Source of the DNA: Kiritimatiellia bacterium
GTDB lineage: Bacteria > Verrucomicrobiota > Kiritimatiellia > RFP12 > UBA1067
Direction of reading: 5' to 3'
DNA length: 64,000 nucleotides
NCBI GenBank assembly: GCA_045656225.1
Contig: JAZOQU010000024.1
Location: forward strand, 5,790-69,789
Both the position numbers and the translations under genes were made by a program. The notes beneath the pieces were generated by a model that saw nothing but the letters and a program-made list of their open reading frames with translations, had not been told where the DNA came from and did no database searches. Shown in pieces: positions 4,086-58,217 of this stretch (within the stretch, counting starts at the first letter, position 1; each line of letters begins with the position of its first letter).

Positions 4086-4120
4086 AGCATAAAGCCTTTC
4101 TAAATAAGAATTATTTTATT

Positions 4121-5368: not shown

Positions 5369-5372
<4 letters not shown>

Positions 5373-22849: not shown

Positions 22850-22850
22850 C

Positions 22851-24614
22851 TTAGAATAATCCCTTCACCTTGCCGGTTTCAACATCAACGTCAATCCTGC
22901 GGTACGCGGGAGAAGCGCTCGTTCCGGGCATAAGCTTTATCTCGCCCGCGACCGGTACGAGAAGCCCGGCGCCGGCATAGACGAGAATGTCCTTTACCGG
23001 CAGACGCCACCCCTTCGGACGGCCGAGAAGTTTCGGATCGTGCGAAAGCGAATACTGTGTCTTCGCGATACAGATCGGAAGGCGCGCGGTCTCGGGATTC
23101 GCCTGGTACGCTTCGAGCTTTTCGAGAGCGAGAGGCTCGAAATCAACTCCGTCGCCGCCGTAAACCTCTTTAACCTGCTTTTCGATACGGTCCTTCAGCG
23201 GTTCGTTAAGATCGCAGAGAAACGCGAAATTGTTTGGCTCGTCGCACGCGGCAATAACGGCCTCGGCGAGTTCGAGCGCACCTTCGCCGCCCTTGAGCCA
23301 GTGGTCGGAAACCGCGAATCTCGCGCCCGCGGATTCGGCGACCTTCTTGACGAGAGCGCGCTCGGCTTCCGTGTCGGTATAGAACGCGTTCAGACAGACG
23401 ACGGGCTGAACGCCCGAGCGGCGGATGATGTCAATGTGGGCGAGAAGATTGTCGCAGCCCTTCTCGAGAAGCTCGAGATTCTCGCTCGTATAAACGGGAT
23501 CGAGCGGGAGACCCGCCTTTACCGCCGGAGCGCCGCCGTGGGCCTTGAGGGCGCGGACCGTCGCGACGAGTACGACCGCATCGGGCTTAAGACCCGAGCA
23601 GCGGCACTTGATGTTCCAGAACTTCTCGAAGCCCATGTCGCTCGCGAAGCCGGATTCGGTCACGACGTAATCGCCGAGCGCACACGCCAGGCGGTCTGCG
23701 ACGACCGAATTCTGACCGATGGCGATGTTTGCGAAGGGACCTGCGTGGACGAACATCGGCTGGCCCTCGATCGACTGCATCATCGTGGGCTTTATCGCAT
23801 TCACTAAAAGCGCGCACATCGCGCCGTCGACCTCTAGATCGGCGGTCGTCACGGGAGCGCCCGACCTGGAATAGGCGACGACTATCTTAGAAAGGCGCTT
23901 TCTCAAATCGGCGAGATCGGCGCTCATCGCGAGAATCGCCATAACCTCGGAGGCTACGGTGATGTAAAAGCCGCTTTCGCACGTAAAGCCGTCGAGTTTT
24001 CCGCCGCGGCCGATTTCGACGTTCCTCAGACCCTGCGCGCAGAAATCCATCGCCCAGCGGAACTGAATGCGCTCAGGATCGACGTCGAGACGCTTCAGCC
24101 CTCGCTCGGCGAGCCATTCGTCGTCGTGGTTGCGCTCATGCTGCATGCGCGAGTTGAGCGCCACCATAGCGAGATTGTTGGCGTTTGTAATAGCGTCGAT
24201 ATCGCCCGTAAGACCGAGCGAAAGCGAAGTCAGAGGCACAACCTGGGCGAGACCGCCGCCCGCCGCCGAACCCTTGATGTTAAAAGTCGGACCTCCCGAA
24301 GGCTGACGTACGCAGCCTATAACTTTTTTACCCAGTCTGCCGAGACCCTGAACAAGACCGAGAGTCGTCGTCGTCTTACCCTCGCCGAGAGCGGTCGGAG
24401 TGATCGCGGTAACGTCGATGTACTTGCCCTTGCGCCCTTCTCCGACGCGCTTAAGGACTTTCGTAACATCGATTTTTGCAAGAACGTCGCCGTACGGCGT
24501 CCATTCGTCGTCTCTTAAATCAAGTTCCTTGGCCAAGTCGGAAGCCTTGCGGAGATTTGCCTCTGCTGCTTCGGCGATCTGCCAATCCTTCATTTTTGTA
24601 GGATCTAACTTCAT
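22851..24614 (-). CDS. fhs: Formate--tetrahydrofolate ligase
   Basis: PTALGEGKTTTTLGL motif and full-length FTHFS similarity (587 aa). Confidence 0.95.
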   Translation of the reverse strand: MKLDPTKMKDWQIAEAAEANLRKASDLAKELDLRDDEWTPYGDVLAKIDVTKVLKRVGEGRKGKYIDVTAITPTALGEGKTTTTLGLVQGLGRLGKKVIGCVRQPSGGPTFNIKGSAAGGGLAQVVPLTSLSLGLTGDIDAITNANNLAMVALNSRMQHERNHDDEWLAERGLKRLDVDPERIQFRWAMDFCAQGLRNVEIGRGGKLDGFTCESGFYITVASEVMAILAMSADLADLRKRLSKIVVAYSRSGAPVTTADLEVDGAMCALLVNAIKPTMMQSIEGQPMFVHAGPFANIAIGQNSVVADRLACALGDYVVTESGFASDMGFEKFWNIKCRCSGLKPDAVVLVATVRALKAHGGAPAVKAGLPLDPVYTSENLELLEKGCDNLLAHIDIIRRSGVQPVVCLNAFYTDTEAERALVKKVAESAGARFAVSDHWLKGGEGALELAEAVIAACDEPNNFAFLCDLNEPLKDRIEKQVKEVYGGDGVDFEPLALEKLEAYQANPETARLPICIAKTQYSLSHDPKLLGRPKGWRLPVKDILVYAGAGLLVPVAGEIKLMPGTSASPAYRRIDVDVETGKVKGLF

Positions 24615-44795: not shown

Positions 44796-45395
44796 TCAGG
44801 CGCGGAGAATGCCGAGTTCGTATGCGCGGCCTACTGCGGACGTGGCGTTGGGGCATCCTAATTTGTTCATGATGCCTTTAAGATGCGTTTTTACAGACTC
44901 CGATCCTATACCCAACAACGATGCGATCCGGTCTCGCTGATGACCTTGCGAAACAAGACGTAAAACATCCATCTCCCGAACCGTCAGCAACGACGGAGCC
45001 GACTGGAAAAGCTCGGATGCGAACGACTCTTCGCCGGAAGCGACTGATTTTATTACGGATGACAGTCTATCTTGATCGACATCCTTTGGCAGATACCCTT
45101 TCGCGCCGTCAGCTTTCGCCCGGGACTCCTCTTCTTTGAGCGGCATCCCGGCAAGGAACACGACTTTGATGTCGGGGACGAGTTTTTTAAGATGCTCAAG
45201 CATTGTAAACCCGTCCATCTTAGGCATTCTGATATCGCTCAGCACGACATCCGCCTTGGCACGGGGGATTACGTCAAGAGCGTCTTCACCGTTAGATACA
45301 AGTGCGACGACGTTAAACGACCCTTCGCTCGCGAGCATCGCTTCAAGGCCCTCTCGGACCATGGGATGATCGTCAACTATAGCGACGTTCAGCAT
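44796..45395 (-). CDS. NarL/FixJ-family response regulator (REC + LuxR HTH)
   Basis: ..VAIVDDHPMV.., ..VVLSDIRMPKMDG.. and a C-terminal ..LTVREMDVLRLVSQGHQRDRIASLLGIGSESVKTHLKGIMNKL... The ATG is 1 nt after the upstream pseudopilin stop. Confidence 0.9.
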   Translation of the reverse strand: MLNVAIVDDHPMVREGLEAMLASEGSFNVVALVSNGEDALDVIPRAKADVVLSDIRMPKMDGFTMLEHLKKLVPDIKVVFLAGMPLKEEESRAKADGAKGYLPKDVDQDRLSSVIKSVASGEESFASELFQSAPSLLTVREMDVLRLVSQGHQRDRIASLLGIGSESVKTHLKGIMNKLGCPNATSAVGRAYELGILRA

Positions 45396-45396
45396 C

Positions 45397-46305
45397 TCAC
45401 TCCGTCAAATTGCGTACTGAACCGTTGCGAATCTCATAATCCTTACCGGTGCAGAGAAGTTTCGTCAATTCCTCGAGATCCTTTTCGGACATTCCGTTGC
45501 GGGGATATTTGATCGCTTCCACATGACAGTCGGCAAATACAACATGAGCGACAACATCATTGCCGACTTTGTGGTTGAAACCGATTATTTCGGCGCCGTC
45601 GTTTTCATGATACTGCAAAGTGCAGTCGTTCTCAAACCCTGCCGATTCGGAAAAATCCGGCTTTACGTCGATAAAATCCTCCCACTGCAATTCTGCGAAG
45701 AGCAACGTGGAATGCGCATAGACGCTGCTGGCTTTTTTACCGGGATAATAATCTCTGTAAAGGGATTTGGATCCCTCGGATGTATCATATCCGAAATAGC
45801 CGTTCATGACATAGCTCCAGACAGGACGCCTGTTGGCGGGCATCTTTTTCAGATGCATCGGACACAGGTAAGTTTCGTGGTTTCGCACAAATTTATACAC
45901 GGCGCCGTTCGTGATGCAATATTCACGCACCTCGGGATCCTGCTCGTAAGCCGACGTGAACCATCCGGCGCTTGAAGCGTGGGATGTTGGCCTGGAGCGA
46001 TACTTGCCATCGGAATTCCAGCTTACCCATCCCGGAATTTCGTCATAAACCTTATTGCTGCCGCCGCCTCTCTGAAGCGCAATCGACATTGTTTCGCACG
46101 AACCGGCCAACGGAAAGTAAACGTCGTCTCCGATTTCAACGCTCGCGGAAACAACCGCCGTAGCGAGGTTTTTAAGATTGGTTTTGCATTTTGCCGCTTG
46201 AGCGGAATCGGTATTTCCGCCGATATAAAAAACCAAAGTCGCCATCAACAAACCGAGGATTCCGACAACCACGAGAATCTCAATCAACGTAAAGGCTTTT
46301 TTCAT
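45397..46305 (-). CDS. Class-III-leader (prepilin-type) protein, DUF1559/H-X9-DG-like, 302 aa
   Basis: MKKAFTLIEILVVVGILGLLMA.. leader and C-terminal ..VVFADCHVEAI.. motif. Confidence 0.75.
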   Translation of the reverse strand: MKKAFTLIEILVVVGILGLLMATLVFYIGGNTDSAQAAKCKTNLKNLATAVVSASVEIGDDVYFPLAGSCETMSIALQRGGGSNKVYDEIPGWVSWNSDGKYRSRPTSHASSAGWFTSAYEQDPEVREYCITNGAVYKFVRNHETYLCPMHLKKMPANRRPVWSYVMNGYFGYDTSEGSKSLYRDYYPGKKASSVYAHSTLLFAELQWEDFIDVKPDFSESAGFENDCTLQYHENDGAEIIGFNHKVGNDVVAHVVFADCHVEAIKYPRNGMSEKDLEELTKLLCTGKDYEIRNGSVRNLTE

Positions 46306-46341
46306 ATCACTCCTTTTATGTAGAAATAGTCGTTAAATGTT

Positions 46342-49300
46342 TCAATCAAACTGTCTGTAGAAAAGAACGCGTGTTTTATGAGGCGTATTGTTGTTCTTGG
46401 TCCTGGTGGGATCACGCCAGACGAGAGCCATCGCCCTTCCGCCGAGCTGGGGCGGAGTATGCCCCGCCGCTCCGCTGCCCATCATCATCGGCTCGGCGCG
46501 GACAAACACGAGGAAAAGCTGCTGCTTGACGGCAAAGCACTCCTTCCAGAAACCGTAAAGATACTTTTTGTCGGCGTCCCAGAGTTTCAGGTCAGAATTC
46601 AAGTCAAAGCCGCAAAGCCGAGTTCCCTTATCGCTGCCATTATCGCGCCACCCCATGTTCTCGCGCCAGACTTCCTCCCAGCTCTTGTTTGAGCCGTTCC
46701 TTCTCACTTCGTCCATAAACCTGCCGGCAATCTGATTTAGAACATTCCATTCTATTTTAGCGGTCTCCGAATACGCGTTGAAAGCATATTTCTTATTGAA
46801 ATCATCCATGTTCATCGAACTGAAATCAACGCCTGAATCCGTTACATTCGTCGAGGTGCATCTCCAGTCAAGCGGCGTATTGGCAAAAACAGACATCATG
46901 ACATTCGTTGAATCGGAATACGGATTCACTTTAAACCCTGTACCTTCGTTCACGAACGGCAGTTTAGAGAACGCCTCCCAATCTCGTTCAAACGGATCGT
47001 AGGTTCTCCATGCGATTTCATTATTTCTCGTTTCTTCAAACGTATTGGCGATATTTACATATTTAGACTGGGTTGAAGAATCTATCTTCATATTTGTCGG
47101 CTTACTGCTGCCTTCTCTTTTAAGCGTGTTAAAACGCGGCAGAAACGCGAATTCATAAACGCTTTGCAGGTATCCGGCATCGCTCGTCGCCATAAAGATG
47201 TCTTTGTCGCGATCTCCTTCTCCCGTCTTATTGTTAGCAAGCCATGTCTGCTCATCCAACGCTCCACCGGTAAAAGCGAACCACTCTTCAGGCGCGTGAT
47301 TGTGACGGGGATCCGCCACTATCGCGGCGCTCGGCTCAAGCTTGAAATCAAGCTCGGCATTGTTGGACGCCATCTCTTCGATCCTATCAAGAGAGAAATT
47401 AAAATTAACGCCGGTATTAAATCTGAGAACGGGAAACGGCTGATCGCCAAAGAGGGTGCGCCAGCGTTTCGCCTGAGCGATTTTAGAATTATTCTGAATC
47501 TCGTCATCTTCCAGGCAAGCGGGAACCATATCGACGATATTCTCATCCTTATCCTTAATACGGAGCCAGAACGCACAGTTCAAGTTTATGTTCACACCGC
47601 TCTGGATAATGTTTTTTAGCGCCTCGCTATTCTCAAAACGGTCATCCTTCTGACCGTTGGATTTAAACGGCTTGAAGGCAGTATGCGCTGAATGTATATA
47701 TGTGATGTTTTTATCCTTCTCAACCTTCTCGAAAGACGGAGACCAGACGGTTATTCCGTTTTGATCTTCTCTGTGCTGAGTCCAGCGGTATACGACTTTC
47801 AATAAAGCATTGTCGTCAAGCGCCAATGCCGTAGCTATCCGCTGGGCCTCTGTGCCTATTCTGGAATCAAACTTCTTTACCGCATCTGCTTCCTGCTTGA
47901 TTTCCCCGTATGTAACCTGACCGGGGAATGACAGCTTGAAGTTGATCATACCGTTATCGGAATCAATCGCAGTAGTTTCAATTTCTTTCTTCCCGAGACG
48001 AAGTTCGCCTTGCGCTGATCCCGTTCTGAGCGCCATCTGTTCAGAAGCGAAAAAGAAACTCATCCTGCCGTCAATCTGATAACTGCCGTCGTTCTCATCC
48101 TTGCGGGAAAACGGGAAAACCGTCAAAGCCCTCAATGTCGCGCTCTGAAAGCCCTGCGCAAATTTTGCGGCGTCTATCTTGTACAAAACGGTCTTTTCGA
48201 CTTCACGGGTATTTTCCGATTCAGTAATGACCTTCTCGCCGTTTTCGGGATCGAATTTTTTAGTAACGGCGAATTTCAGATCGCTGATCATCGGATGAAT
48301 ACCGCACACCATAGGAACTCGCTCTAACGTAGGCGTAGCCAACGACAGCGGAACGCGGTTTGCGTCAAGATAATCGTAAAGCGATACGCATCCCAATGTG
48401 CTGAGCACATAGGGCCATTCATTTTTAGCTTTGCCCTGAAGGTTGTTCGCCTCGATTGTCAACGCAAAAGCGTTCGGATTGACATCCTTGGCCGACAATT
48501 CCTTGACATCGAAAGGTTGACTGTCGGCATCCGCCAGATCATACGTTTCTTCAGAAGCGTTTTGGTTGCCGGATGAACCGGAAGCGGCGGCAGAGGACGT
48601 TTTCGTTCTCGTCTTAGGGAAAAGGCCGTCCGTCACGAACGTCATGCGAGAGACCATGTCGTCCGCCGCCTCGTTGCCGTTTTTCCCGAGATCATAAAAA
48701 CCGTCCCTGGACCCCGTCGATTTGATATATTCGACAAACGGACTTTTCATCTTGCCTATGGATCCTTTTTGACCCAAGGCGAGATTGAAATCGGCCACCG
48801 AAATCAGAGGATACTTGGATTGAAAGGATATCTCTTTAGTCTTCGAATCGACATCCCTGAACTGCTCCATGAACGTATCCCACTGACTCGCGCCGGAACC
48901 GCTTCCGGTATGCTTCGCGCCGTCTTCAAAAATATACGAGAGCGAAACTCTCTGATTGGATGCCGATGTCCGGCGCTGATTGGCGAACATTCTGTTTACA
49001 TCAAAATAATCTGATACGTCAAGCACGCAGAAAGCATAACGCCCGACGTCAAAGTCAAAGGCCTTCCACTCGGCAGTCGGAGATAACCTGGAATAATACC
49101 GTGCCTCGTTCACAAGCGTCGGCGGAATGTACGCAAGGGCCTCGAGACAGAGGGGTGAAACCGTTTTATCCCACCTTACGCTGGGTTCACCCGGCTCCTG
49201 CCAGTTGTTTACGCCCACAAGAACACGGTTTCGCCATTCGTTATGCAGCTTACCGTCAGTCGACAAGTTCCCCACGCCCGGATGAGGGTTGTTGTTTACG

Positions 49301-49500
49301 GCACGATCAAGCGAATCTATCGCCTCGGCCATTGCCGCTTTGACAAGCTGACGGCTGGAGGCGCTGCGCCTTAAATAACTCGACGGAAGTCTCGAATAAC
49401 GCATGTACGCCGAAAACGCAACGGCGGAAATGATGAGAAACCCCAGCATTCCTATGACGATAAGAAGCGCACTGCCCTTTTTGGTTTTAAACTGTCTCAT
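46342..49500 (-). CDS. Giant GspK-like minor pseudopilin, 1052 aa
   Basis: N-terminus MRQFKTKKGSALLIVIGMLGFLIISAVAFSAY (GspK-type, no FTLxE) and a GspK-like ..GRYAFCVLDVSDYFDVNRMF.. segment. ATGA overlap with the upstream gene. It occupies the K position in F-G-H-I-J-K order. Confidence 0.65.
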   Translation of the reverse strand: MRQFKTKKGSALLIVIGMLGFLIISAVAFSAYMRYSRLPSSYLRRSASSRQLVKAAMAEAIDSLDRAVNNNPHPGVGNLSTDGKLHNEWRNRVLVGVNNWQEPGEPSVRWDKTVSPLCLEALAYIPPTLVNEARYYSRLSPTAEWKAFDFDVGRYAFCVLDVSDYFDVNRMFANQRRTSASNQRVSLSYIFEDGAKHTGSGSGASQWDTFMEQFRDVDSKTKEISFQSKYPLISVADFNLALGQKGSIGKMKSPFVEYIKSTGSRDGFYDLGKNGNEAADDMVSRMTFVTDGLFPKTRTKTSSAAASGSSGNQNASEETYDLADADSQPFDVKELSAKDVNPNAFALTIEANNLQGKAKNEWPYVLSTLGCVSLYDYLDANRVPLSLATPTLERVPMVCGIHPMISDLKFAVTKKFDPENGEKVITESENTREVEKTVLYKIDAAKFAQGFQSATLRALTVFPFSRKDENDGSYQIDGRMSFFFASEQMALRTGSAQGELRLGKKEIETTAIDSDNGMINFKLSFPGQVTYGEIKQEADAVKKFDSRIGTEAQRIATALALDDNALLKVVYRWTQHREDQNGITVWSPSFEKVEKDKNITYIHSAHTAFKPFKSNGQKDDRFENSEALKNIIQSGVNINLNCAFWLRIKDKDENIVDMVPACLEDDEIQNNSKIAQAKRWRTLFGDQPFPVLRFNTGVNFNFSLDRIEEMASNNAELDFKLEPSAAIVADPRHNHAPEEWFAFTGGALDEQTWLANNKTGEGDRDKDIFMATSDAGYLQSVYEFAFLPRFNTLKREGSSKPTNMKIDSSTQSKYVNIANTFEETRNNEIAWRTYDPFERDWEAFSKLPFVNEGTGFKVNPYSDSTNVMMSVFANTPLDWRCTSTNVTDSGVDFSSMNMDDFNKKYAFNAYSETAKIEWNVLNQIAGRFMDEVRRNGSNKSWEEVWRENMGWRDNGSDKGTRLCGFDLNSDLKLWDADKKYLYGFWKECFAVKQQLFLVFVRAEPMMMGSGAAGHTPPQLGGRAMALVWRDPTRTKNNNTPHKTRVLFYRQFD

Positions 49501-49961
49501 TTTCGCTCCTCCGGCGAAAGTCTGTAGAAGTTGGGAAGATGAAAACCCGTCTGCATGGAACTGGCCGAGGTTTCGAGGCGAATGTTGGCGCCGCCCTCGC
49601 GAATTGAAATCTTGTACGGCGTATTCCAGGGATCCATCATCTTTCCGCCGCTTGAAAGCTGCGCCATTAAAAGCGCAGGTATTTTACCGGACTCGCCCGA
49701 GCCGCCCGTTCCGAGCAGAAACCCTACCGTGCCCTTATCGGCATCCTGATCTCTCATAGTAGGCAACTCATGGCTCTGATCGTAGTTCTCGTATGCCAGA
49801 ATAGCCTGAGAGATCGACTTTACCTCGGCATTGGCGCGCGCAACCTTCGCTCGCTGCTGGGCTGATGCCACAGATGTCGTCAATGCCGCCATAATCATGC
49901 CGAGAACGCACAGCACGACCAGCATCTCCATCAGTGTAAAACCGCGTTTAATTGATTTCAT
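49497..49961 (-). CDS. GspG-like pseudopilin, ~154 aa
   Basis: The start is taken at ATG 49961 (MKSIKRGFTLMEMLVVLCVLGMIMAAL). Contains ..AKVARANAEVKSISQAILAYE.. and ..DPWNTPYKISI... The track start at 50024 adds a non-leader extension. Confidence 0.7.
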   Translation of the reverse strand: MKSIKRGFTLMEMLVVLCVLGMIMAALTTSVASAQQRAKVARANAEVKSISQAILAYENYDQSHELPTMRDQDADKGTVGFLLGTGGSGESGKIPALLMAQLSSGGKMMDPWNTPYKISIREGGANIRLETSASSMQTGFHLPNFYRLSPEERK

Positions 49962-50436
49962 CGGGATAACTCCAGATATCGTCATAATCATTGAAGCGCT
50001 TGTTGGGTCCGGCGCTCTTGACATTGATCGTGTAGGTCTTGAACGAGCGTCCGGAAGAACCGGATCCGACAGATATAACCTTAAAATCGCTCAACTTGGC
50101 GTCATCGCGCAATCCGCCGCCCTTCGCCGTCAGAAAATCAGCATTGGGGCCGACGCTTTCTTCGGTTGAGACATCCCAGGCGCGAGTTCTGATGTTGCCC
50201 TCGTCGTCCCAGATTCCGACAATGCGCTGCACCTTGTCGTTCCAGATATAAGCGTTGTCGGATTCGTCTCTTACGGCCGCAATGTTGTTGCGGACCTGAT
50301 CAAGGTCGGCAACGCCCGCGACTCCCGTTCTCCATGAGATTGAAGACTGGTTGAAAAGCATTGTAAGCACAGTGACAAGCATCCCTAAAAGAAGAGAGGC
50401 CACCAATAGTTCAAGTATGGTAAAACCGCGTCTCAT
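49948..50436 (-). CDS. Minor pseudopilin (GspJ-like by position), 162 aa
   Basis: MRRGFTILELLVASLLLGMLVTVL leader. Confidence 0.65.
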   Translation of the reverse strand: MRRGFTILELLVASLLLGMLVTVLTMLFNQSSISWRTGVAGVADLDQVRNNIAAVRDESDNAYIWNDKVQRIVGIWDDEGNIRTRAWDVSTEESVGPNADFLTAKGGGLRDDAKLSDFKVISVGSGSSGRSFKTYTINVKSAGPNKRFNDYDDIWSYPDEIN

Positions 50437-50443
50437 AAATGCG

Positions 50444-50983
50444 TCACTCCTCGTTGTCTATGACACCTTGAAACCGCACTTCCGTATAATAAAGCGGCAT
50501 TGCAAGCAGTTCTGCGGGATTCTTGGTCGCTCTGAAACCGATCTTGACGACAGAACTGTCTTCCTCGTGAAGAATTACGAGTCCAGCCTTCAAGCCGCCG
50601 GATGCGGTCGACGGCCATTCCGACTTGGGCTTGTCGGCCGAGCCTTCGTACCCCAACGACCCCAACACTCCCGAATACGCCGCCTTGGCGAGAGAATCAG
50701 GATTGTTTACGGCAATACCCCTATTGTTGAAGTACTCTCGCCACCCCTCGTCGGATGGTCTGCTTTGAATATTGCGGAATGTGCTCCACTTCAAATTCGT
50801 CGCCGAGAGCGCCATTACCAGCGGACTGATCACAGCGTCGGCGTAGGCGGCCGACGCAACGTCTTCACGGCTTTGACGGTTCTCGCGGTAACCGAGGGAA
50901 TACAAACCTAAAATGGAAAGCACGCCGCCAGCCATAATAAGTATGGCCATATTGACTTCCATCAATGTAAATGCTTTTTTCAT
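50444..50983 (-). CDS. Minor pseudopilin (GspI-like by position and N-terminus), 179 aa
   Basis: MKKAFTLMEVNMAILIMAGGVLSIL leader. Confidence 0.65.
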   Translation of the reverse strand: MKKAFTLMEVNMAILIMAGGVLSILGLYSLGYRENRQSREDVASAAYADAVISPLVMALSATNLKWSTFRNIQSRPSDEGWREYFNNRGIAVNNPDSLAKAAYSGVLGSLGYEGSADKPKSEWPSTASGGLKAGLVILHEEDSSVVKIGFRATKNPAELLAMPLYYTEVRFQGVIDNEE

Positions 50984-50986
50984 AGT

Positions 50987-51832
50987 TTAATCAAGACTCT
51001 TTGTTGGACTGTCGGTGGTTCCCACTTTCTGCGCGGAAAGAGCCCCGCTCTTATCAGGCCGCAAACTGGAAACTATGATCGTCGACGCGCCGTCGGCGCC
51101 GGACATACCGCCGTCGCCGGAATTAGAACTGACGGAAAAACGCATCACGCTGCCGCCGGCAATGGGATTTCTCACATCACGCGAATAGGAACTGCCGAAG
51201 ATATAACCGTGAGGTAAAGTCAATTCAGCGAATTCGAAGCCGTACGCGTCACCGACCGCCCATGTCACTCCGCCGCGATCTTTAAGCTCGTAAGCGAAGC
51301 ATTCAAATTCCTTGTTGCCGCCCGAGAGCAAAGGCTCGGTGGTGTTGTCACGCCTGGTAATCTCGTAAACGACGGACTTCATGGCCTCATTCCCCTCGTC
51401 GCCGTTCATCTGATAAAAATTGATTCCTCCGCCGTCCGCAGAAGAGGAAGAGGAATTTTCAAGCCCCTCTTCGTCTTCGTCAAGCATCTTGGTGTTGTAC
51501 TTCAAATCTCCGAATTCATCGCAGAGATAATTACCCGTAACTCTCGTCAGACGTCCCGCGCGGCGAACAGCCACGGCTCTACCGACAACTATTTCAAATT
51601 CTTCGGAAGTCCGTCCCTTGAGCGTTTCGTTCCAGAAATAGATGGCGACGGGTTGACGATCTATCTGAGCGCGCTGGTATGCCGAACGGATGAACTGGTT
51701 GGCGTTCTGAACAGTTCCGCGTTCCTCCATGCCGCGCTTCATCTGACGATAGCCCGACACCGTAATCCCGCCCAATATCGCCATAATCGCGATAACGACA
51801 AGCAGTTCAAGCAAAGTAAAGGCGCGATTCAT
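50987..51832 (-). CDS. Minor pseudopilin (GspH-like by position), 281 aa
   Basis: MNRAFTLLELLVVIAIMAILGGI leader followed by ..NANQFIRSAYQRAQIDRQPVAIYF... ATGA overlap with the upstream gene. Confidence 0.65.
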   Translation of the reverse strand: MNRAFTLLELLVVIAIMAILGGITVSGYRQMKRGMEERGTVQNANQFIRSAYQRAQIDRQPVAIYFWNETLKGRTSEEFEIVVGRAVAVRRAGRLTRVTGNYLCDEFGDLKYNTKMLDEDEEGLENSSSSSADGGGINFYQMNGDEGNEAMKSVVYEITRRDNTTEPLLSGGNKEFECFAYELKDRGGVTWAVGDAYGFEFAELTLPHGYIFGSSYSRDVRNPIAGGSVMRFSVSSNSGDGGMSGADGASTIIVSSLRPDKSGALSAQKVGTTDSPTKSLD

Positions 51833-52404
51833 TGTCTCGTTACCTCCATAGAGTCAGTAGGCACGGAATATATTATCTTAAACCGCCTGAAATAACCGTT
51901 GGACGTTTCAGGATAGCCGAAATACATCTGATCTACACTCATTTTCTGAGGATGGCGCTCCGTTCCTCTCACGGCATCCATAAAATCCATGCCGTAACCC
52001 CTGTCGTGTTTTTCGCCCGGGCTTTCGGAGACGTAAAGAGCCGAAATATCCATCATGGGGTTGCTGTTATCGACGGCTTCGCGGACAACGGCTTTGACCA
52101 TATCGCGAACTTCGGCGGACTCTAAAACATATTTATTGTAATCTGTTGAATCGTCAAACCCCTCTTCATTGCCGCGCGAAAGGACATCTCCGCTGTTTAT
52201 TCTGTCTCCGACCGACCCGGGCCAACGGTCCTTCTGGGCGCGATATGTCTCGATGCCCTGAAGGACAATGGCGCACAACGCTTTAGCCTTCTGCTCGCGG
52301 GACTTCTTAAACTGGCCTGAAACAGTCTGGACCGTAATCCCGAGAAGCACGCCGATGATCGCAAGGACCACCATCAATTCTATCAGTGTAAATGCTTTTT
52401 TCAT
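51829..52404 (-). CDS. Pseudopilin paralog, 191 aa
   Basis: MKKAFTLIELMVVLAIIGVLLGI leader and a G-like helix ..KAKALCAIVLQGIETYRAQKDRWPG... Confidence 0.7.
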   Translation of the reverse strand: MKKAFTLIELMVVLAIIGVLLGITVQTVSGQFKKSREQKAKALCAIVLQGIETYRAQKDRWPGSVGDRINSGDVLSRGNEEGFDDSTDYNKYVLESAEVRDMVKAVVREAVDNSNPMMDISALYVSESPGEKHDRGYGMDFMDAVRGTERHPQKMSVDQMYFGYPETSNGYFRRFKIIYSVPTDSMEVTRQ

Positions 52405-52406
52405 TA

Positions 52407-52985
52407 TTATCTATCCACTTGATCGCGCGTCCAGCTGTAGACGTCGTCGGATTTGAGCCCTTCGGTATAAGGCTCTATCTTGCCGTCTGCGCCTGAACAC
52501 CAAACGGCGACATTGGCGCGGATGCGCAGAGACTCTCCGCCGACAATCGCCTCGGTGATCCCGTCGCCGTCCGCATCGAGAGCATAACGAAGACGGTGAT
52601 CGCGCACGGTGCCGCCCGACGGGATTCGAGTCGAAAGCGACGCGGAGGAACCGGCCTCTTTAATCACATTCTCCGCCCAAGGCGTAACCACTCCAAAGCG
52701 CCCGAGACCTGTCATCTTACCGTCTTTTACGCGATACTCCAACTTTCCGGCTATCGGACAGGCTGTAATCTCGTCAAGACCGTTCTCGGAATTCATCTCG
52801 CTGTACATGCGGGGAGTCCATTCGACAAGACCGAGCACCGTCTCGACATCCTTGACGAAATTATGGCATTTCGCCTTGTTGGCCTTCTCGGGAGCAGAGG
52901 AAAAACCGTAAACCAAAGCACCCATAAGAATACCGAGAATGCCGAGAACCACTAAAATTTCCACCAAAGAAAAACCTTTTTTCAT
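52407..52985 (-). CDS. Pseudopilin paralog, 192 aa
   Basis: The start is taken at ATG 52985 (MKKGFSLVEILVVLGILGILMGAL) with AAGGAG 6 nt upstream. Contains a DADGDG loop and ..VWCSGADGK... Confidence 0.7.
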   Translation of the reverse strand: MKKGFSLVEILVVLGILGILMGALVYGFSSAPEKANKAKCHNFVKDVETVLGLVEWTPRMYSEMNSENGLDEITACPIAGKLEYRVKDGKMTGLGRFGVVTPWAENVIKEAGSSASLSTRIPSGGTVRDHRLRYALDADGDGITEAIVGGESLRIRANVAVWCSGADGKIEPYTEGLKSDDVYSWTRDQVDR

Positions 52986-52996
52986 ACTCGCTCCTT

Positions 52997-54178
52997 TTAA
53001 TTGCTGAGATGGATAATATCGTCGCTTACCCATTTGCCGACGCATTCGTTCGCCTTGGATTCAAGAGTTTTCCTGTCGATCCACGGCGGGAAAGTCCGAC
53101 CGTTGGGACCTGCGCTCCACAACGTATAACGTTGATACGGGGCCGGGGAATAGTAATAAAAATCATTGTTCCACCCGTCGCGTACCGTAATGCCGTCAAG
53201 AACATACTGGTTGGAAGCGCTGCCTGTAGTCGAAAAAATCTCGATGTTCACGTTGTCCGCATCAAGAGTGGTGCCGCCGCCGTCCTTGATATCAACCCCG
53301 AAAAGAACGAAGTTGTCCGGGCGGTTGACGCGGCAGATGTTTTTAAGATTGGGAATCCATCTCGCGCAAACGGCCTGAGAAGGTATGTTCGCCACACTCG
53401 CATAGTTCATCGACCCCTCGTTGCCTACCGCGGTACGATCCTTAATGCCTTGCCAACCGCCGTAGGTTTCAAAAGATTTCCCCGTAAACGGATCGCACGG
53501 CATCACATTGTTCCCGGTCCATTGCGCGTATTCTTCGAAAAATTCGCTGGGGCCGTTCATCATGACAAGATATCTCGGCAGCAGATAGCTGAGCAGACCG
53601 AACTTGAAAAGCTGCAGATTGCGCCAGTCGATTTTATCTTTGAGCGAAGTGAAACGGCCGAGGTTGCTCGTTCCGTCATCAAACCCGGCCATGAACCTGG
53701 CCTTTCGGTCCTCATTCTCAAAATAGGCTTTAAAATCCTCGTCGTTGGATGACGCGCGGCGCTTTATCTCTTCGGAAACAGACTCCACCAGGTCTTCGTA
53801 ACCGGGAGGAAACGGGAAGCGGCAATCGATCGGCTGAGCTTTGCAGGCGGCAGCAACCTGATCCCATGCGCGCGACTCGTTCACCTCGCCGATCTTCGTC
53901 CAATTCCAGATATTCTCGTTTACATCATCGTTTTGGATGCCGTGTTCGTCCACCGCGGCGTAAATATCCCTCGAGCCGTGCGTCTTCACGGGGGGGTAGC
54001 TGCCGAAAGCGGCGTAATACCCCGAAAGACAGTTCTCAAGTTTCTGCAGACGCATAATGGTGACAGTCCTTTTATGGGAGTCGGAGCCTACAGACGTTAT
54101 TCTGAAGACAAGCCCCATCAGGATCGCCATCACGGCGATGACAATCATAAGCTCGATTAACGTAAACGCTTTTTTCAT
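52997..54178 (-). CDS. GspG-like major pseudopilin candidate with a ~250-aa insertion, 393 aa
   Basis: MKKAFTLIELMIVIAVMAILMGLV leader. G-like ..LQKLENCLSGYYAAFGSYPPV.. after the helix, and G-like C-terminus ..DGWNNDFYYYSPAPYQRYTLWSAGPNGRTFPPW... It is the first gene after gspF. Confidence 0.7.
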   Translation of the reverse strand: MKKAFTLIELMIVIAVMAILMGLVFRITSVGSDSHKRTVTIMRLQKLENCLSGYYAAFGSYPPVKTHGSRDIYAAVDEHGIQNDDVNENIWNWTKIGEVNESRAWDQVAAACKAQPIDCRFPFPPGYEDLVESVSEEIKRRASSNDEDFKAYFENEDRKARFMAGFDDGTSNLGRFTSLKDKIDWRNLQLFKFGLLSYLLPRYLVMMNGPSEFFEEYAQWTGNNVMPCDPFTGKSFETYGGWQGIKDRTAVGNEGSMNYASVANIPSQAVCARWIPNLKNICRVNRPDNFVLFGVDIKDGGGTTLDADNVNIEIFSTTGSASNQYVLDGITVRDGWNNDFYYYSPAPYQRYTLWSAGPNGRTFPPWIDRKTLESKANECVGKWVSDDIIHLSN

Positions 54179-54188
54179 TGAGACGCCC

Positions 54189-55514
54189 TTACATGGATCC
54201 GGACCCGCCGGAAACAGAAGAAATGATCTTGATCATCGGCAGGAACATGGCGACGACGATGGTACCGACGATTACCGCCAGCACGATGATGAGAGCGGGC
54301 TCGATCGCCGCGGTCATGCCGGCGACGGCGTTATCGACTTCATCATCGTATGTGTCGGCGATGCGGGTAAGCATCTCGGCGAGAGCGCCCGTCTCTTCGC
54401 CGACCTCGACCATCGAAATCACCATCGGGGGGAACACCCAGCATTGGGAGAGCGGCTGCGTGACGCCCTCGCCTTCCTTTACCGCGTCATGAACGGACTG
54501 GATCGCTTTGGCGATGACGCGGTTGCCCGACGTCTCGCGGACGATGACGAGCGCCTGCAGAATCGGCACGCCCGAAGAAAGAAGCGTTCCAAGCGTTCTC
54601 GTGAGACGGGAAACGGCCGTTCGCTGCACAAGCGTACCCGTGACAGGCATACGCAATTTCAACACATCGAAAATATATGCGCCCCTCTCGGTCTTGCCGA
54701 GCAGTTTAAGAAGAACGATCACGCCGATGAAAATCACGGCAACCGTCAGACCGTTGTGCTGGACATACTCGGACATGTCTATGACGAACTGCGTCACCGA
54801 CGGAAGAGCCTCTCCACCGAGCATGTCATTGAACACCTGCTTGAATTTCGGAATGACCGTAACGAGCAGGAACGCTGTAATGCCGACGGCGGCGACGAGA
54901 ACGACAATGGGATAAATCATCGCGCCCTTCACCTTGTTCTTGATTTTGTCCGCCTTCTCGGCAAACTCGGCCAAACGGGCCAGAACAACTTCAAGAACAC
55001 CGCCCGCTTCGCCGGCCTTTACCATGTTGATATAGAGATTGTCGAAGATCTTGGGATAGGCCGTAAGCGATTCGGAAAAGGTTCCGCCGGCGGAAATCGT
55101 CTCAGATATGCCCTCAAGAGCCTCACGCAGCTGAGCGTCCTTCATCTGGCGCTTCAACACGTCGATACTGCGCATCAAAGGAAGCCCGGCATTGACGAGC
55201 GTTGCGAGCTGACGGGTGAACTGGGTCAGGATCTTGGTCTTGATCCTGCCCTGAAGAAACTTGGGCAACCTGATGTTGATCTCCATATTAAGCCCCGTCT
55301 TCTTCTTGCCGCCGGACGGCGAAGGGGGCCCTTTCCTGTTTGTCTTCTTCTGAGCAACAGAGGAGGAAGAAGAAGAGCGGACCTCGCCCATAGCTGTGGG
55401 CAAAAGCCCCATCGCGCGCACCGCCGCGATAGCCGCGGTGCGGTCAGCCGCTTCAACCTGTCCGCGGGTTTCATTACCTTCAGCATCTTTCGCTATATAC
55501 TGGAATGTCGCCAT
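54189..55514 (-). CDS. gspF: Type II secretion / type IV pilus platform protein GspF/PilC
   Basis: 441 aa with two T2SSF repeats (..FTRQLATLVNAGLPLMRSIDVL.. and ..LTRTLGTLLSSGVPILQALVIV..). There is a basic/S-rich insert near the N-terminus. Confidence 0.9.
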   Translation of the reverse strand: MATFQYIAKDAEGNETRGQVEAADRTAAIAAVRAMGLLPTAMGEVRSSSSSSVAQKKTNRKGPPSPSGGKKKTGLNMEINIRLPKFLQGRIKTKILTQFTRQLATLVNAGLPLMRSIDVLKRQMKDAQLREALEGISETISAGGTFSESLTAYPKIFDNLYINMVKAGEAGGVLEVVLARLAEFAEKADKIKNKVKGAMIYPIVVLVAAVGITAFLLVTVIPKFKQVFNDMLGGEALPSVTQFVIDMSEYVQHNGLTVAVIFIGVIVLLKLLGKTERGAYIFDVLKLRMPVTGTLVQRTAVSRLTRTLGTLLSSGVPILQALVIVRETSGNRVIAKAIQSVHDAVKEGEGVTQPLSQCWVFPPMVISMVEVGEETGALAEMLTRIADTYDDEVDNAVAGMTAAIEPALIIVLAVIVGTIVVAMFLPMIKIISSVSGGSGSM

Positions 55515-55585
55515 ATCTCACACACGCCCTAACACACCTGTCATCCACGACAGACGGTGGCACGCCCTTTCTTGAATTTATGCAG

Positions 55586-55594
55586 ATTATACCA
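55586..55594 (-). promoter_or_regulatory. Extended -10 box TGGTATAAT for the gspF-pseudopilin operon
   Basis: The plus strand reads attatacca. Predicted +1 is ~55579, giving a ~65-nt leader to the ATG at 55514. Confidence 0.45.
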
Positions 55595-55644
55595 CACTAA
55601 CGCCTATTTCAGCAACAATAAGGTCGCTCGAATTCCGCACCCGG

Positions 55645-55971
55645 TCACAGCGGAGGGATTTTCATATTAGGTATATGAACCTCTTCTTTGACGTCGATGC
55701 GCGAGGATCCGAATATGTACTCGGCCGCCATCGGAGAGACGGTAACCGTATCGTGCTTTGACGAAGATGAATACGACTCGTCGCCGCCCATTGACGTGAG
55801 AGCCGCACGGCCCGCCTTTGCGCGGACGTCGCGGGACATATTCAGCGACGAAACTATATAGTGGAGAAACGCGAACAGGGCGGCAAGAATCAACGCAAGG
55901 CAAAAGAGCCCGAGCGCGAGCTCGACAAGCGCCTGCGCACGACGGAACGTTGAACGCCTCTCAGTGTCCAT
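55645..55971 (-). CDS. TadE-like minor Flp pseudopilin, 108 aa
   Basis: The start is taken at ATG 55971 (MDTERRSTFRRAQALVELALGLFCLALILAALF). It overlaps the TadG-like stop by 11 nt. The track ORF to 56217 is an upstream extension inside the neighbouring gene. Confidence 0.65.
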   Translation of the reverse strand: MDTERRSTFRRAQALVELALGLFCLALILAALFAFLHYIVSSLNMSRDVRAKAGRAALTSMGGDESYSSSSKHDTVTVSPMAAEYIFGSSRIDVKEEVHIPNMKIPPL

Positions 55972-57379
55972 GACTCGTTCCTCCGTGCCCTCCGGGACCG
56001 CCGCCCATAGGCCTGCGGCAAGTGTGGGAATTGAACTTAAGCCAGGTTGAACCTTCACGCCTGAAAGACTCTCGCTCCCACGTAACCAACTGGGCGCAGT
56101 AAAAGCATGCGCTGCCGTAACGGGGCCCCTTCTCCATATAAACGGGAAGATGATCGCGGATGTGCGCCACCCAATCGAAATCAGCCGTTCCGAGATTCTG
56201 TCCGCCCACAGCGTCAAGAGGCACGAGCCTTGTATCGGTAAACGCCGGTATTACAAAAGCGTTAAGAGCCGTGACTTCAGCCGTGCGGCCTTCAAAATCC
56301 TCAACGGCTCCGAAAGGCTTCGCGGCGGCGGACCAATGAAACTTCGCCGTTGAATCGACCGCTACGGCAGAAACCTCGCCGATGCACCTGCAGACGGACG
56401 CGCAACCGCGGACATTATACTCATCCTTGATGCCGCCCACGACGGGAAACTCATAGCCGTAATCATCATCCGCGAGGGAAAGACCGTTGAACCACCTTCT
56501 CCATGAACCGGTATCGAAAAAGAACCACGTCTCTTCCATATCGGAAATGAGACGGGACTTTTCGATCTCCTCCCCGGTCACGGTCTCATCGGAATAGCGC
56601 TCGACAAGTTCAATAATCTCCTCGTTCGAAAAAACCGACCTTAATGAAATCCTGCGTGAAATCACGTGAAGCGAAAACACCTCGCTGTTGTCGAGAGCGT
56701 TTTCACGGTTGACGGGCAGAGGGGCCCAATCGTTATAACTTCCGTAATCCTCAAGAAGATTCCTGTTGTTGAAGAAAAACCAGCACCAGTCCTTGCCGGA
56801 TATGGCCTGATAGAACTGACGGTTGAGAAGCAGATGTCCGGAGAGCGAATCGTAAAACTCAAGATTGTCAGGCCCTGTCGCAAGGCCTTCGGAAATTACG
56901 CTCGAGATTGCCGTGGCGTAATCAACCCATGCTCCCGGAAACGGCTCAGGATACGGAGCTCCCGGACCTTGACCTCCGGCGGCATAAACCGTACGGATGT
57001 CATTTACGTGTCTTTGCAGAATCGCAGCAAACTCAGGGCGTACCGACATCCCGTTTTTCTTGGCGGCCCTGTTCGCGAGCCGAAGCGCCTCTACAGGCTC
57101 AAGAAGCGCCAAATGTCTCTGCTCAAGCACAATTCTCCGACATTCGTTGGTCTCGTCATGTATGGCCGCAACAAGATGCTGAATATTCAATCGCCCTATC
57201 TCGTTCAGAATATGACCCTGCTTATGGGCGGCGGCAATCGCGGCGGCGTCTCCGCCATGCTGAATATGAGTCTTTTCGCGAACGGAAGTGAAAATATCGA
57301 CATTGAGCAGCACCAAACTCGTCAAAACGACGAGAATAAAAACCAACAACAGAACAATCTGGCCGCTACGCGCACGCAT
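55961..57379 (-). CDS. TadG-like pilus-associated protein, 472 aa
   Basis: MRARSGQIVLLLVFILVVLTSLVLLNVDIFTSV..QHGGDAAAIAAAHKQ resembles the TadG/Tad N-terminal domain. The C-terminus carries CFYC..HTC and a GGGPGGHGGTSHGH tail. TGATG overlap with the upstream gene. Confidence 0.65.
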   Translation of the reverse strand: MRARSGQIVLLLVFILVVLTSLVLLNVDIFTSVREKTHIQHGGDAAAIAAAHKQGHILNEIGRLNIQHLVAAIHDETNECRRIVLEQRHLALLEPVEALRLANRAAKKNGMSVRPEFAAILQRHVNDIRTVYAAGGQGPGAPYPEPFPGAWVDYATAISSVISEGLATGPDNLEFYDSLSGHLLLNRQFYQAISGKDWCWFFFNNRNLLEDYGSYNDWAPLPVNRENALDNSEVFSLHVISRRISLRSVFSNEEIIELVERYSDETVTGEEIEKSRLISDMEETWFFFDTGSWRRWFNGLSLADDDYGYEFPVVGGIKDEYNVRGCASVCRCIGEVSAVAVDSTAKFHWSAAAKPFGAVEDFEGRTAEVTALNAFVIPAFTDTRLVPLDAVGGQNLGTADFDWVAHIRDHLPVYMEKGPRYGSACFYCAQLVTWERESFRREGSTWLKFNSHTCRRPMGGGPGGHGGTSHGH

Positions 57380-57849
57380 CAGAACCCCGCATCATACATG
57401 TAAAACGGGAAATGAGATTCCACCTGGGCGTTTCCCTCCACCGTAAAATCCCGTGTCGACATTTCAACTCGGGCCTCGGCAACCGGAGCCGTACCCATTC
57501 CGGATTGAACATCAACGTCCGTAGTATGCCAATATTCGTATTCAAGAATGGCGTTGGCACGGGGAGGGTTTTCGCTCGCAAGATATATCGGCACGCGTGA
57601 AACTTCGTCAATTCCCCGATCTGTAGGCCAAAGACGCTTGCCCGCGACAGGGATAATCGCCGCGCGAGCCGACTTTCTGCACATGAAATCATTAAACCCG
57701 ACGGCCTTGGCGCGTGCGGCGCGCGCGGCGCCGTAATCAAGAAGCGTGCGCGCGGCAAGTTTGCGGGAAAGCGTAAACGCCGTCGTGAATATCAGCATAA
57801 TCACGAGTACGGCGATCAGCGTCTCGACCATAGCCTGGGCACGCTTCAT
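57379..57849 (-). CDS. TadE-like minor Flp pseudopilin, 156 aa
   Basis: MKRAQAMVETLIAVLVIMLIFTTAF N-terminus. Confidence 0.7.
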   Translation of the reverse strand: MKRAQAMVETLIAVLVIMLIFTTAFTLSRKLAARTLLDYGAARAARAKAVGFNDFMCRKSARAAIIPVAGKRLWPTDRGIDEVSRVPIYLASENPPRANAILEYEYWHTTDVDVQSGMGTAPVAEARVEMSTRDFTVEGNAQVESHFPFYMYDAGF

Positions 57850-57876
57850 GAGCCCCCCTGTTATCTGACGGACTTA

Positions 57877-58035
57877 TCAGTCGTTACCGGCATCTTCAAT
57901 CTGCTCGGCGGCATCTTCAGCCTTATCTCTGATTTTATCCTTCAGAAGCGTAAACGTACCGATAAGGGCGATGGCGATGAGGCTGATAATAAGGATGTAT
58001 TCAACCATCGTCTGACCTTTTTTCATCTTCTTCAT
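57877..58035 (-). CDS. flp: Flp/Fap-family pilin, 52 aa (not in ORF track)
   Basis: Hand translation: MKKMKKGQTMVEYILIISLIAIALIGTFTLLKDKIRDKAEDAAEQIEDAGND. Carries the G/XXXXEY Flp processing motif and an AAGGAG SD 7 nt upstream. TGA at 57879-57877. Confidence 0.85.
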   Translation of the reverse strand: MKKMKKGQTMVEYILIISLIAIALIGTFTLLKDKIRDKAEDAAEQIEDAGND

Positions 58036-58061
58036 TGATATCTCCTTTCGGATTTTTAACT

Positions 58062-58217
58062 TTAAGGATACTCTGAACTTACATGTCGCTCGGTTCTCAC
58101 TACAGCCGACTTCGTAGCCCTGAGAAGATACGCGAACGCACTGACGGCAAGAATGAGAGCAGAGAACGTGAGTACGTACTCAAGCGCCGTCTGACCTCTC
58201 CTTGTTTTCATTTTCAT
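58062..58217 (-). CDS. flp: Flp/Fap-family pilin, 51 aa (not in ORF track)
   Basis: Hand translation: MKMKTRRGQTALEYVLTFSALILAVSAFAYLLRATKSAVVRTERHVSSEYP. Carries the G/XXXXEY motif. TAA at 58064-58062. No SD; a promoter box lies directly upstream. Confidence 0.8.
   Translation of the reverse strand: MKMKTRRGQTALEYVLTFSALILAVSAFAYLLRATKSAVVRTERHVSSEYP

Follow-up and report, generated by a model that had tools for sequence, protein, structure and literature searches.

A conserved GspF-pseudopilin operon with enlarged subunits in gut and rumen Kiritimatiellia, a candidate part of a split type II secretion system

A stretch of 64,000 nt from a Kiritimatiellia bacterium (contig JAZOQU010000024.1; this whole stretch is referred to as the window) contains an operon of 11 consecutive open reading frames (ORFs), which was read directly from the sequence and runs on the minus strand from position 55514 to position 44796. 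It codes for a two-domain GspF protein, eight proteins with a class-III leader, a protein of 1052 amino acids (aa) and a NarL-type regulator (Table 1). The operon is real and has been conserved in Kiritimatiellia of gut and rumen, and two of its subunits far exceed the sizes reached in any system studied so far. With a probability of roughly 0.6, it makes up the platform and pseudopilin part of a type II secretion system (T2SS)-class machine of these bacteria, whose genes are split over several loci. This interpretation is favoured because of the GspG signatures of the prepilins, the neighbouring GspD, GspL and GspM genes, the lack of PilT, PilY1 and PilQ features and the biology of Kiritimatiella. 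Systems of this kind are already known, be it T2SS, type IV filaments, modular pilins or insertions of the GspK or ComZ type; the lineage-specific enlarged subunits and two large uncharacterised protein families are new. Literature searches revealed no paper in which these operon proteins are described.

Results

Organization and conservation of the operon

The genes are arranged in the order F-G393-p192-p191-H281-I179-J162-g154-K1052-d302-RR, where RR is the response regulator. For two genes an internal start was chosen. The p192 ORF of 212 aa is better read from position 52985 (MKKGFSL...), resulting in 192 aa, and the g154 ORF of 175 aa (start 50024) from an internal ATG at 49961 (MKSIKRGF...), resulting in 154 aa. 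Both starts agree with the position of the N_methyl domain (residues 21-44 of the long ORF in the case of p192) and with independent gene calls on an identical contig; the gene call in locus L081 gave 192 aa for p192. The junctions then amount to +10, +11, +2, -4, +3, +7, -14, -4, +36 and +1 nt. An earlier reading of the DNA by a model that used the letters and the ORFs alone (the sequence-only reading) had listed eleven minus-strand ORFs, all of which are present, and its junction range of -14 to +36 nt with three overlaps was reproduced once the internal starts were used. The protein sizes given there are also correct; GspG and GspK of E. coli K-12 have 145 aa and 327 aa, respectively.

When the six reading frames of the window were searched for the core of the class-III leader, exactly eight matches were obtained, all of them at the starts of operon genes. 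These are the same eight of the nine genes following gspF that had been named before, the exception being K1052, which is devoid of the motif. In seven of the eight leader-bearing proteins N_methyl scored above the Pfam threshold. The 130-nt gap preceding gspF, which the sequence-only reading had pointed out together with its box, carries the extended -10-like sequence TGGTATAAT. Since TGGTATAAT was absent from the output of a consensus promoter scan and promoter-like sites were no commoner in the window than in shuffled sequence, it has to be regarded as a motif only, whose role as a promoter is unproven. Terminator-like sites were also no commoner than in shuffles, no internal terminator of note was seen in the scan of the operon, and no part of the window matched an Rfam family at the gathering score.

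Among species-representative genomes, 131 relatives of K1052 were detected, and 80 loci were fetched. The gene order from gspF to d302 was invariant across these 80 Kiritimatiellia loci, and in 34 of them the response regulator gene followed d302. The flanks of the operon vary. The homologues stem from Kiritimatiellae/Kiritimatiellia metagenome-assembled genomes (MAGs) of rumen and gut samples, and GspF is 70-93% identical across the listed loci. K1052 and G393 were found in full length and collinear in more than 100 independent assemblies. The fixed order and the full-length families in independent assemblies demonstrate that the large ORFs are no chimeras, and an assembly artefact, a possibility that the sequence-only reading had raised, was therefore rejected.

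One MAG (SRR873601_bin.89) harbours two complete copies of the operon, L017 (CAMOCC010000100.1) and L024 (CAMOCC010000016.1), whose K proteins are 45% and 41% identical to K1052 of the window. They may represent a true duplication or a mixed bin. The operon contigs of the loci L052, L057, L063, L065, L068, L071 and L072 bear the names of unrelated taxa (Anaerovoracaceae, Azospirillum, Barnesiella, Faecalibacterium, Gemmiger, Lachnospira and Methanomethylophilaceae) and are probably mis-binned.

Table 1. Operon genes and other features of the window discussed in the text
Feature	Positions	Strand	Basis
Gap 5' of gspF, 130 nt, with extended -10-like TGGTATAAT at 55594-55586	55515-55644	-	read directly
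GspF/PilC-type inner-membrane platform protein, 441 aa, two T2SSF domains	54189-55514	-	PF00482 x2, E 8.6e-63
G393, giant GspG-derived prepilin, 393 aa	52997-54178	-	N_methyl, T2SSG, AF2, profile searches
p192, prepilin, 192 aa, GspG-like N-terminus, C-terminal motif SxGxDG...DDvySW	52407-52985	-	N_methyl, family consensus
p191, prepilin, 191 aa	51829-52404	-	N_methyl
H281, prepilin, 281 aa, weakly GspH-like N-terminus	50987-51832	-	N_methyl, hhalign
I179, prepilin-like, 179 aa (MKKAFTLMEVN...)	50444-50983	-	leader motif
J162, prepilin, 162 aa, GspJ-nearest N-terminus, GspG-type C-terminus (SAGPN...DDIW)	49948-50436	-	hhalign
g154, GspG homologue of canonical size, 154 aa	49497-49961	-	hhalign, TIGR01710, DPWNTPY motif
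K1052, 1052 aa, GspK-type N-terminus (KKG/SALLIVIGML), DVSDYFDVN motif	46342-49500	-	sequence, AF2, hhalign
d302, DUF1559-related prepilin, 302 aa	45397-46305	-	N_methyl, orthologue SBP_bac_10 matches
NarL/LuxR-type response regulator, 199 aa	44796-45395	-	Response_reg + GerE
GspL-like, 420 aa: PilM-like cytoplasmic domain, one transmembrane segment, periplasmic domain	9777-11039	-	TIGR01175 E 2.1e-6 (below cut-off), architecture
GspM-like, 180 aa	9235-9777	-	NF040576 T2SS_GspM_XpsM E 9.2e-9, 35 bits (cut-off 60)
GspD-type secretin, 935 aa, charged C-terminal tail	6411-9218	-	Pfam Secretin, Secretin_N x3, GspD N0
Flp pilin, 51 aa, RRGQTALEY	58062-58217	-	
Flp pilin, 52 aa, KKGQTMVEY	57877-58035	-	
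TadE	57379-57849	-	
TadG-like gene	55961-57379	-	
CpaB/RcpC	22037-22849	-	
FHA-domain TadA ATPase	20321-22018	-	
Single-domain TadB/C-like protein	19629-20306	-	
TMEM260-like O-mannosyltransferase with TPR repeats, 1384 aa	15467-19621	-	

The platform protein and the GspG-like prepilins

The two T2SSF domains of the first gene product bear out its earlier assignment as a two-repeat GspF/PilC platform protein. The GspF model TIGR02120 scored 386 bits (cut-off 424) and PilC models 384-392 bits, all under their equivalog cut-offs.

By their sequences, at least four of the prepilins are GspG-like, among them g154, which has the canonical size, and G393, which bears an insert. TIGR01710 (GspG) was the top or near-top NCBIfam match for six of the eight prepilins. 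Family alignments built from the 80 related loci were compared by hhalign with the Gsp proteins of E. coli K-12. Only g154 could be aligned to GspG along its entire length (126 columns, 24-166 versus 5-138, probability 97.8, E 7.7e-13); its E-value with TIGR01710 was 2.4e-13. The families of p192 (probability 96.7, N-terminal part), p191 (probability 97.5, 64 N-terminal columns) and d302 matched GspG in the N-terminal helix only, and the globular part of p191 gave no match when the hydrophobic helices were trimmed. H281 was best matched by GspH (probability 94.3 over 68 N-terminal columns). J162 was nearest to GspJ over 32 N-terminal columns (probability 94.4), but with the helix trimmed its C-terminus, which resembles that of p192, matched residues 119-139 of GspG (probability 88.7, E 2.5e-6). 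For I179 the comparison was ambiguous; this protein had no Pfam match, weak matches under the cut-offs to PilV and Verru_Chthon protein B, and no match in a profile search of the PDB. Searches of PDB sequences with the H, I and J family profiles hit N-terminal helices only, or nothing. The designations of H281 as GspH and of I179 as GspI are thus putative, being taken from N-terminal helices and gene position only.

According to the sequence-only reading, the operon mirrors the canonical G-H-I-J-K order. This labelling is correct in part only, since no fewer than four genes proved to be GspG-like and a GspG of canonical size is encoded just before K1052. A clean mapping did not emerge, as the H label depends on the N-terminal helix and the C-terminus of J162 is of the GspG type. 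Regarding the G label, G393 is indeed a GspG derivative, but the full-length homologue of GspG is g154.

The GspG relationship of G393 was evident from several searches. Besides N_methyl, the protein has a T2SSG match at residues 323-361 (25.1 bits, Pfam cut-off 21), a domain which is also precomputed in many of its homologues. Its C-terminus, DGWNNDFYYYSP...LWSAGPNG...DDI, corresponds to the GspG signature and was still GspG-like in hhalign comparisons with the helices trimmed. The best match of the family profile to PDB sequences was PulG (5wda, E 1.3e-3). These data agree with the earlier description of a G-like protein of 393 aa. An AlphaFold2 (AF2) model based on a 46-sequence alignment reached a predicted local distance difference test value (pLDDT) of 87.8 and a predicted template modelling score (pTM) of 0.83. 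It comprises an N-terminal helix (4-58), a mostly helical part up to residue ~320 and then a small C-terminal sheet. With this model, Foldseek returned only non-significant GspG matches in the PDB. From the N_methyl and T2SSG ends and the confidently modelled, unmatched middle it follows that G393 is a GspG derivative with an insert of ~260 aa (residues ~60-320). Judging from the model, which has no PDB match in this region, the insert may adopt a novel fold. G393 possesses both a class-III signal peptide and an extra non-pilin module, the two features of a modular pilin. Its homologues (n=1412) are ~390-400 aa long and 52-60% identical.

The 1052-amino-acid protein at the GspK position

The N-terminus of K1052 (KKG/SALLIVIGML, the slash marking the putative cleavage site) is similar to that of E. 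coli GspK (RG/VALLIVLMLL), both lacking Phe+1 and Glu+5. Within the K1052 family G9, S10, A11, L13 and V15 are invariant. The motif DVSDYFDVN at residue 161 aligns with DxxxCFNLN at residue 99, the most conserved motif of GspK. In the form DxxxxF[ND][LV]N, it occurs in 51 of 52 members of the family and in 36 of the 40 sequences of a GspK alignment that was built in the present analysis. By hhalign, residues 6-168 were aligned with residues 3-155 of GspK (probability 79.8, E 1.5e-5); once the transmembrane helix was trimmed, the probability dropped to 1-2%.

Further searches with K1052 revealed no relationship. It had no Pfam or NCBIfam match, 46 relatives had no Pfam match at E<=10, and a profile of 52 sequences gave only spurious ETV6 matches among PDB sequences. 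In its AF2 model (pLDDT 80.7, pTM 0.78), a pair of N-terminal helices (11-68), a beta-rich centre (~397-745) and three terminal strands (994-1051) can be discerned. The conserved segments lie at both ends of the protein, namely a helix, strand and the motif within residues 11-170 and the strands 994-1051, and are separated by ~800 residues. Foldseek found nothing below E 0.1 in the PDB and nothing below 0.04 in BFVD; the best, non-significant neighbours were beta-sandwich toxins and adhesins.

Taken together, the leader type, the motif and the position in the operon make an origin of K1052 from a GspK/PilX-type protein likely, though not demonstrated. The earlier label "K-like" can be traced to leader type, one short motif and position, but found no backing in Pfam, NCBIfam, the PDB profile search, Foldseek or the hhalign comparison with the trimmed transmembrane helix. 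The family itself is large. In a collection clustered at 90%, 751 homologues were found, and all 120 listed ones have ~1020-1100 aa and no functional name. At 50% identity (E<=1e-3) there are 1121 clusters, and the best 150 of them consist mainly of proteins of full length (~950-1190 aa), along with a few fragments; all of these 150 are close family members, no shorter remote relatives being among them.

The DUF1559-related prepilin and the response regulator

The family consensus of d302 ends with ...FNH..G....AHvvFADGHv and the window copy with ...AHVVFADC, in which DG is replaced by DC. In the window copy only N_methyl was detected, with no SBP_bac_10 match at E<=10, but seven of ten orthologues matched SBP_bac_10 (best E 1.1e-7). 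The relationship to DUF1559 proposed by the sequence-only reading thus probably holds at the level of the family, whose motif is H-X13-DG or AH-X4-DG and not exactly H-X9-DG.

In 11 of the related loci a protein of ~460-480 aa recurs (L015: 16259-17647), which by eye resembles a NarX/HisKA_3-type sensor kinase (LHDGFQQ H-box). In the window, no such protein is encoded beside the response regulator.

Possible partner genes in the window and in related loci

The sequence-only reading had noticed no ATPase, peptidase or secretin in cis. On the scale of the operon this is correct, but the window does contain a GspD-type secretin, which scored 324.7 bits with the GspD model TIGR02517 (cut-off 351) compared to 157 bits with PilQ. 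The secretin gene is clustered with GspL-like and GspM-like genes ~35 kb from the operon on the same strand. We infer that this cluster is probably the partner of the operon. The sole ATPase of the T2SSE family in the window is the FHA-TadA type belonging to a Tad set.

Related loci were searched by tblastn with E. coli and window proteins for GspE, GspO and GspD near the operon. Within the 80 loci only two hits were obtained. In L001, which represents the closest related species, the N-terminus of a GspE/PilB-type ATPase is encoded ~8 kb downstream of the operon on the same strand (22600-23193), and in L033 a pair of PilM-like (GspL-like) and GspM-like genes lies 8 kb downstream of the operon. 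The L001 sequence ends within the GspE/PilB-type gene.

The secretin ends in a highly charged, K/E-rich tail of ~130 aa. The gene following it (5369-6313, minus strand) encodes a protein of 314 aa with a transmembrane anchor and a long K/E/A coiled coil, which has no family match and could be a lineage-specific secretin accessory protein.

Discussion

The operon has much in common with canonical T2SS operons (E. coli K-12 gsp, Klebsiella pul). In both cases gspF is followed by prepilin genes starting with one of the GspG type, the C-terminal signature of GspG is present and the last large subunit combines a GspK-type leader lacking Phe+1 and Glu+5 with a DxxxxFNLN-like motif; genes for GspD, GspL-like and GspM-like proteins, the probable partners, are available in the window. 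The view of the sequence-only reading that this is a T2SS-class type IV filament gene set with enlarged subunits is sustained by GspF, the GspG signatures and the insert of G393. By contrast, there are nine filament proteins in the Kiritimatiellia operon and five in the canonical one, and the proteins at the G and K positions have 393 aa instead of 145 aa and 1052 aa instead of 327 aa, the latter without detectable T2SSK domains. Unlike in the canonical operon, the gene for a GspG of the usual size is flanked by those for J162 and K1052, and the operon is extended by a DUF1559 prepilin gene and a response regulator gene. Linkage to gspE, gspO and gspC is lacking, and gspD, gspL and gspM are located 35 kb away.

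On this basis, a mode of action can be proposed. A prepilin peptidase encoded elsewhere would cleave the eight leaders and probably also the G/S site of K1052. A GspE-type ATPase, likewise encoded elsewhere, would drive GspF to build a short periplasmic filament. Its assembly may be primed by a tip complex containing some of the small prepilins and K1052, in which, as is typical of tip subunits, Glu+5 is missing, and the shaft would be formed by g154 and/or G393. The growing filament would push folded exoproteins, in this saccharolytic lineage presumably glycoside hydrolases and sulfatases, through the GspD channel. The extra domains of G393, H281, d302 and K1052 would be lineage-specific additions, for which cargo docking or secretin gating is the best guess. 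For the cultured Kiritimatiella glycovorans, which secretes sulfatases and has no TonB-dependent uptake, a T2SS has been predicted along with many exported sulfatases (PMC5148204).

Several points weigh against this interpretation. By profile scans and tblastn, no GspE, prepilin peptidase or GspC was found in the 64-kb window, and the association of the operon with the GspD cluster is deduced only. GspF scores as well with PilC models as with GspF. The filament proteins outnumber the expected five, for most of their globular parts there is no match among the solved pseudopilins, and K1052 shows neither a GspK fold nor a profile match beyond its N-terminus. Moreover, a shaft subunit of 393 aa or a tip of 1052 aa is hard to fit into the vestibule of a standard secretin.

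Large additional domains are not without precedent in filament subunits. In GspK, an alpha-domain is inserted in the pilin beta-sheet, and in Thermus ComZ a beta-solenoid of ~380 residues occupies this place (PMC8179133, PMC6561018). K1052 resembles GspK, ComZ and CofB of enterotoxigenic E. coli (ETEC) in its pilin-type N-terminus without Glu5, the large extra domain and the inferred location at the tip. On the other hand, it exceeds them in size two- to threefold, its inserted region matched neither the alpha-domain of GspK, the beta-solenoid nor the CofB domains in Foldseek searches, and its terminal pilin topology is putative. According to Raynaud et al. 2021 (PMC8179133), modular type IV pilins are under-counted, as the databases contain no signature for many of the modules. 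G393 shares with them the class-III leader and a bulky non-pilin module. It differs in that the module follows the N-terminal helix and precedes the C-terminal sheet instead of being grafted after the pilin module, and in being a GspG-type protein at the position of the major pseudopilin.

It is conceivable that the operon encodes a surface-displayed type IV filament, adhesive or substrate-capturing, with G393 as a shaft decorated by its insert and K1052 as a tip equivalent to a fused PilX/PilY1 adhesin for host or dietary glycans. The sequence-only reading had preferred a displayed fibre or adhesin to a periplasmic endopilus. Large and confidently modelled domains without a known fold in G393 and K1052, the beta-rich centre of K1052 with its non-significant resemblance to beta-sandwich toxins and adhesins, the indifference of GspF between the PilC and GspF models and the precedent of ligand-binding modular tip pilins (PMC8179133; ComZ, PMC6561018) are consistent with such a fibre. 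The sizes in the series H281-I179-J162-g154-K1052-d302 also recall fimU-pilV-pilW-pilX-pilY1-pilE of type IVa pili, in which four prepilins of small size precede a protein of ~1000 aa and a further prepilin, I179 being a weak PilV match. However, neither a PilY1 beta-propeller nor a vWA domain was detected in K1052, whose hydrophobic N-terminus is of the GspK/PilX type and not a Sec signal peptide as in PilY1. The window contains no PilT or other retraction ATPase, no PilQ (AMIN-domain secretin) and no separate PilN/O/P set, its secretin is of the GspD type, the prepilins carry GspG signatures and not those of type IVa pilins, and no carbohydrate-binding or adhesin domain was recognisable in any subunit. 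The GspD-type secretin and the GspL/M-like genes point to ordinary secretion, and a displayed filament is regarded as rather unlikely. Somewhat more doubtful still is a new structural class of filament, in which a G393 shaft would display a novel domain and a K1052 tip would unite the roles of PilX and PilY1. Such a filament would extend to the cell surface, where it would capture glycans (sulfated ones or those of mucin) or pass substrates on to secreted enzymes, and would thus be more than a periplasmic piston.

A role in DNA uptake or in some other pseudopilus function unrelated to secretion, with K1052 as a ComZ-like tip receptor, is much less probable. ComZ is indeed a tip receptor with a GspK-like pilin fold and its inserted domain (PMC6561018), and ComGC, ComGD and ComGE models matched several prepilins weakly, but these matches were limited to the N-terminal helices and under the cut-offs, comEA, comEC and dprA were not seen in scans of the window, and both the GspG motifs and the neighbouring GspD/L/M genes speak for secretion. 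It is highly improbable that the pseudopilins form a composite machine with the adjacent Tad/Flp genes or that the big ORFs arose from errors of assembly or annotation. Although the Flp, TadE and TadG genes immediately precede the operon on the same strand and the Tad ATPase, platform protein and CpaB are also encoded in the window, this adjacency was encountered in only one of the 80 other loci (L006), the flanks being otherwise variable, and 130 nt separate the two gene sets; an artefact is contradicted by the collinear, full-length K1052 and G393 described above. A Verru_Chthon cassette was considered as well, as several prepilins weakly match its proteins B, C and D, but was rejected since the matches (TIGR02596/8/9/2600) are N-terminal only, with 14-25 bits far under the cut-offs of 51-256, and K1052 has no match to protein A.

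Returning to the T2SS interpretation, Kiritimatiellia are common in guts and rumens, where they degrade sulfated glycans and those of the host and depend on exported enzymes. Their secretion machinery has so far been noted only as "a T2SS" in one genome paper. The sizes known for subunits of type IV filaments are extended by those at the GspG and GspK positions, which are approximately three times as large as in the model systems. The K1052 family and the G393 insert, without a Pfam model or a neighbour in the PDB or among the predicted viral structures of BFVD, are targets for structure analyses, and the operon puts the piston model to the test, as a pseudopilus of bulky subunits would have to function beneath an ordinary GspD secretin. 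If the extra domains do bind cargo, they could inform about cargo recognition by T2SS.

Flanking genes and other observations

The sequence-only reading had described glycan-degrading genes on the flanks of the locus. This applies to one gene nearby, a sulfatase gene at 58337; the downstream flank contains housekeeping genes (M50 peptidase, aldolase, Der). The Tad/Flp set directly upstream of gspF (55645-58217, minus strand) comprises two Flp genes, TadE, the TadG-like gene and a small ORF. At the left edge of the window, an ORF of at least 1371 aa (3-4115, minus strand), which is cut by this edge, has a signal-peptide-like start and matches Gly_rich_2 with an E-value of 7.5e-9.

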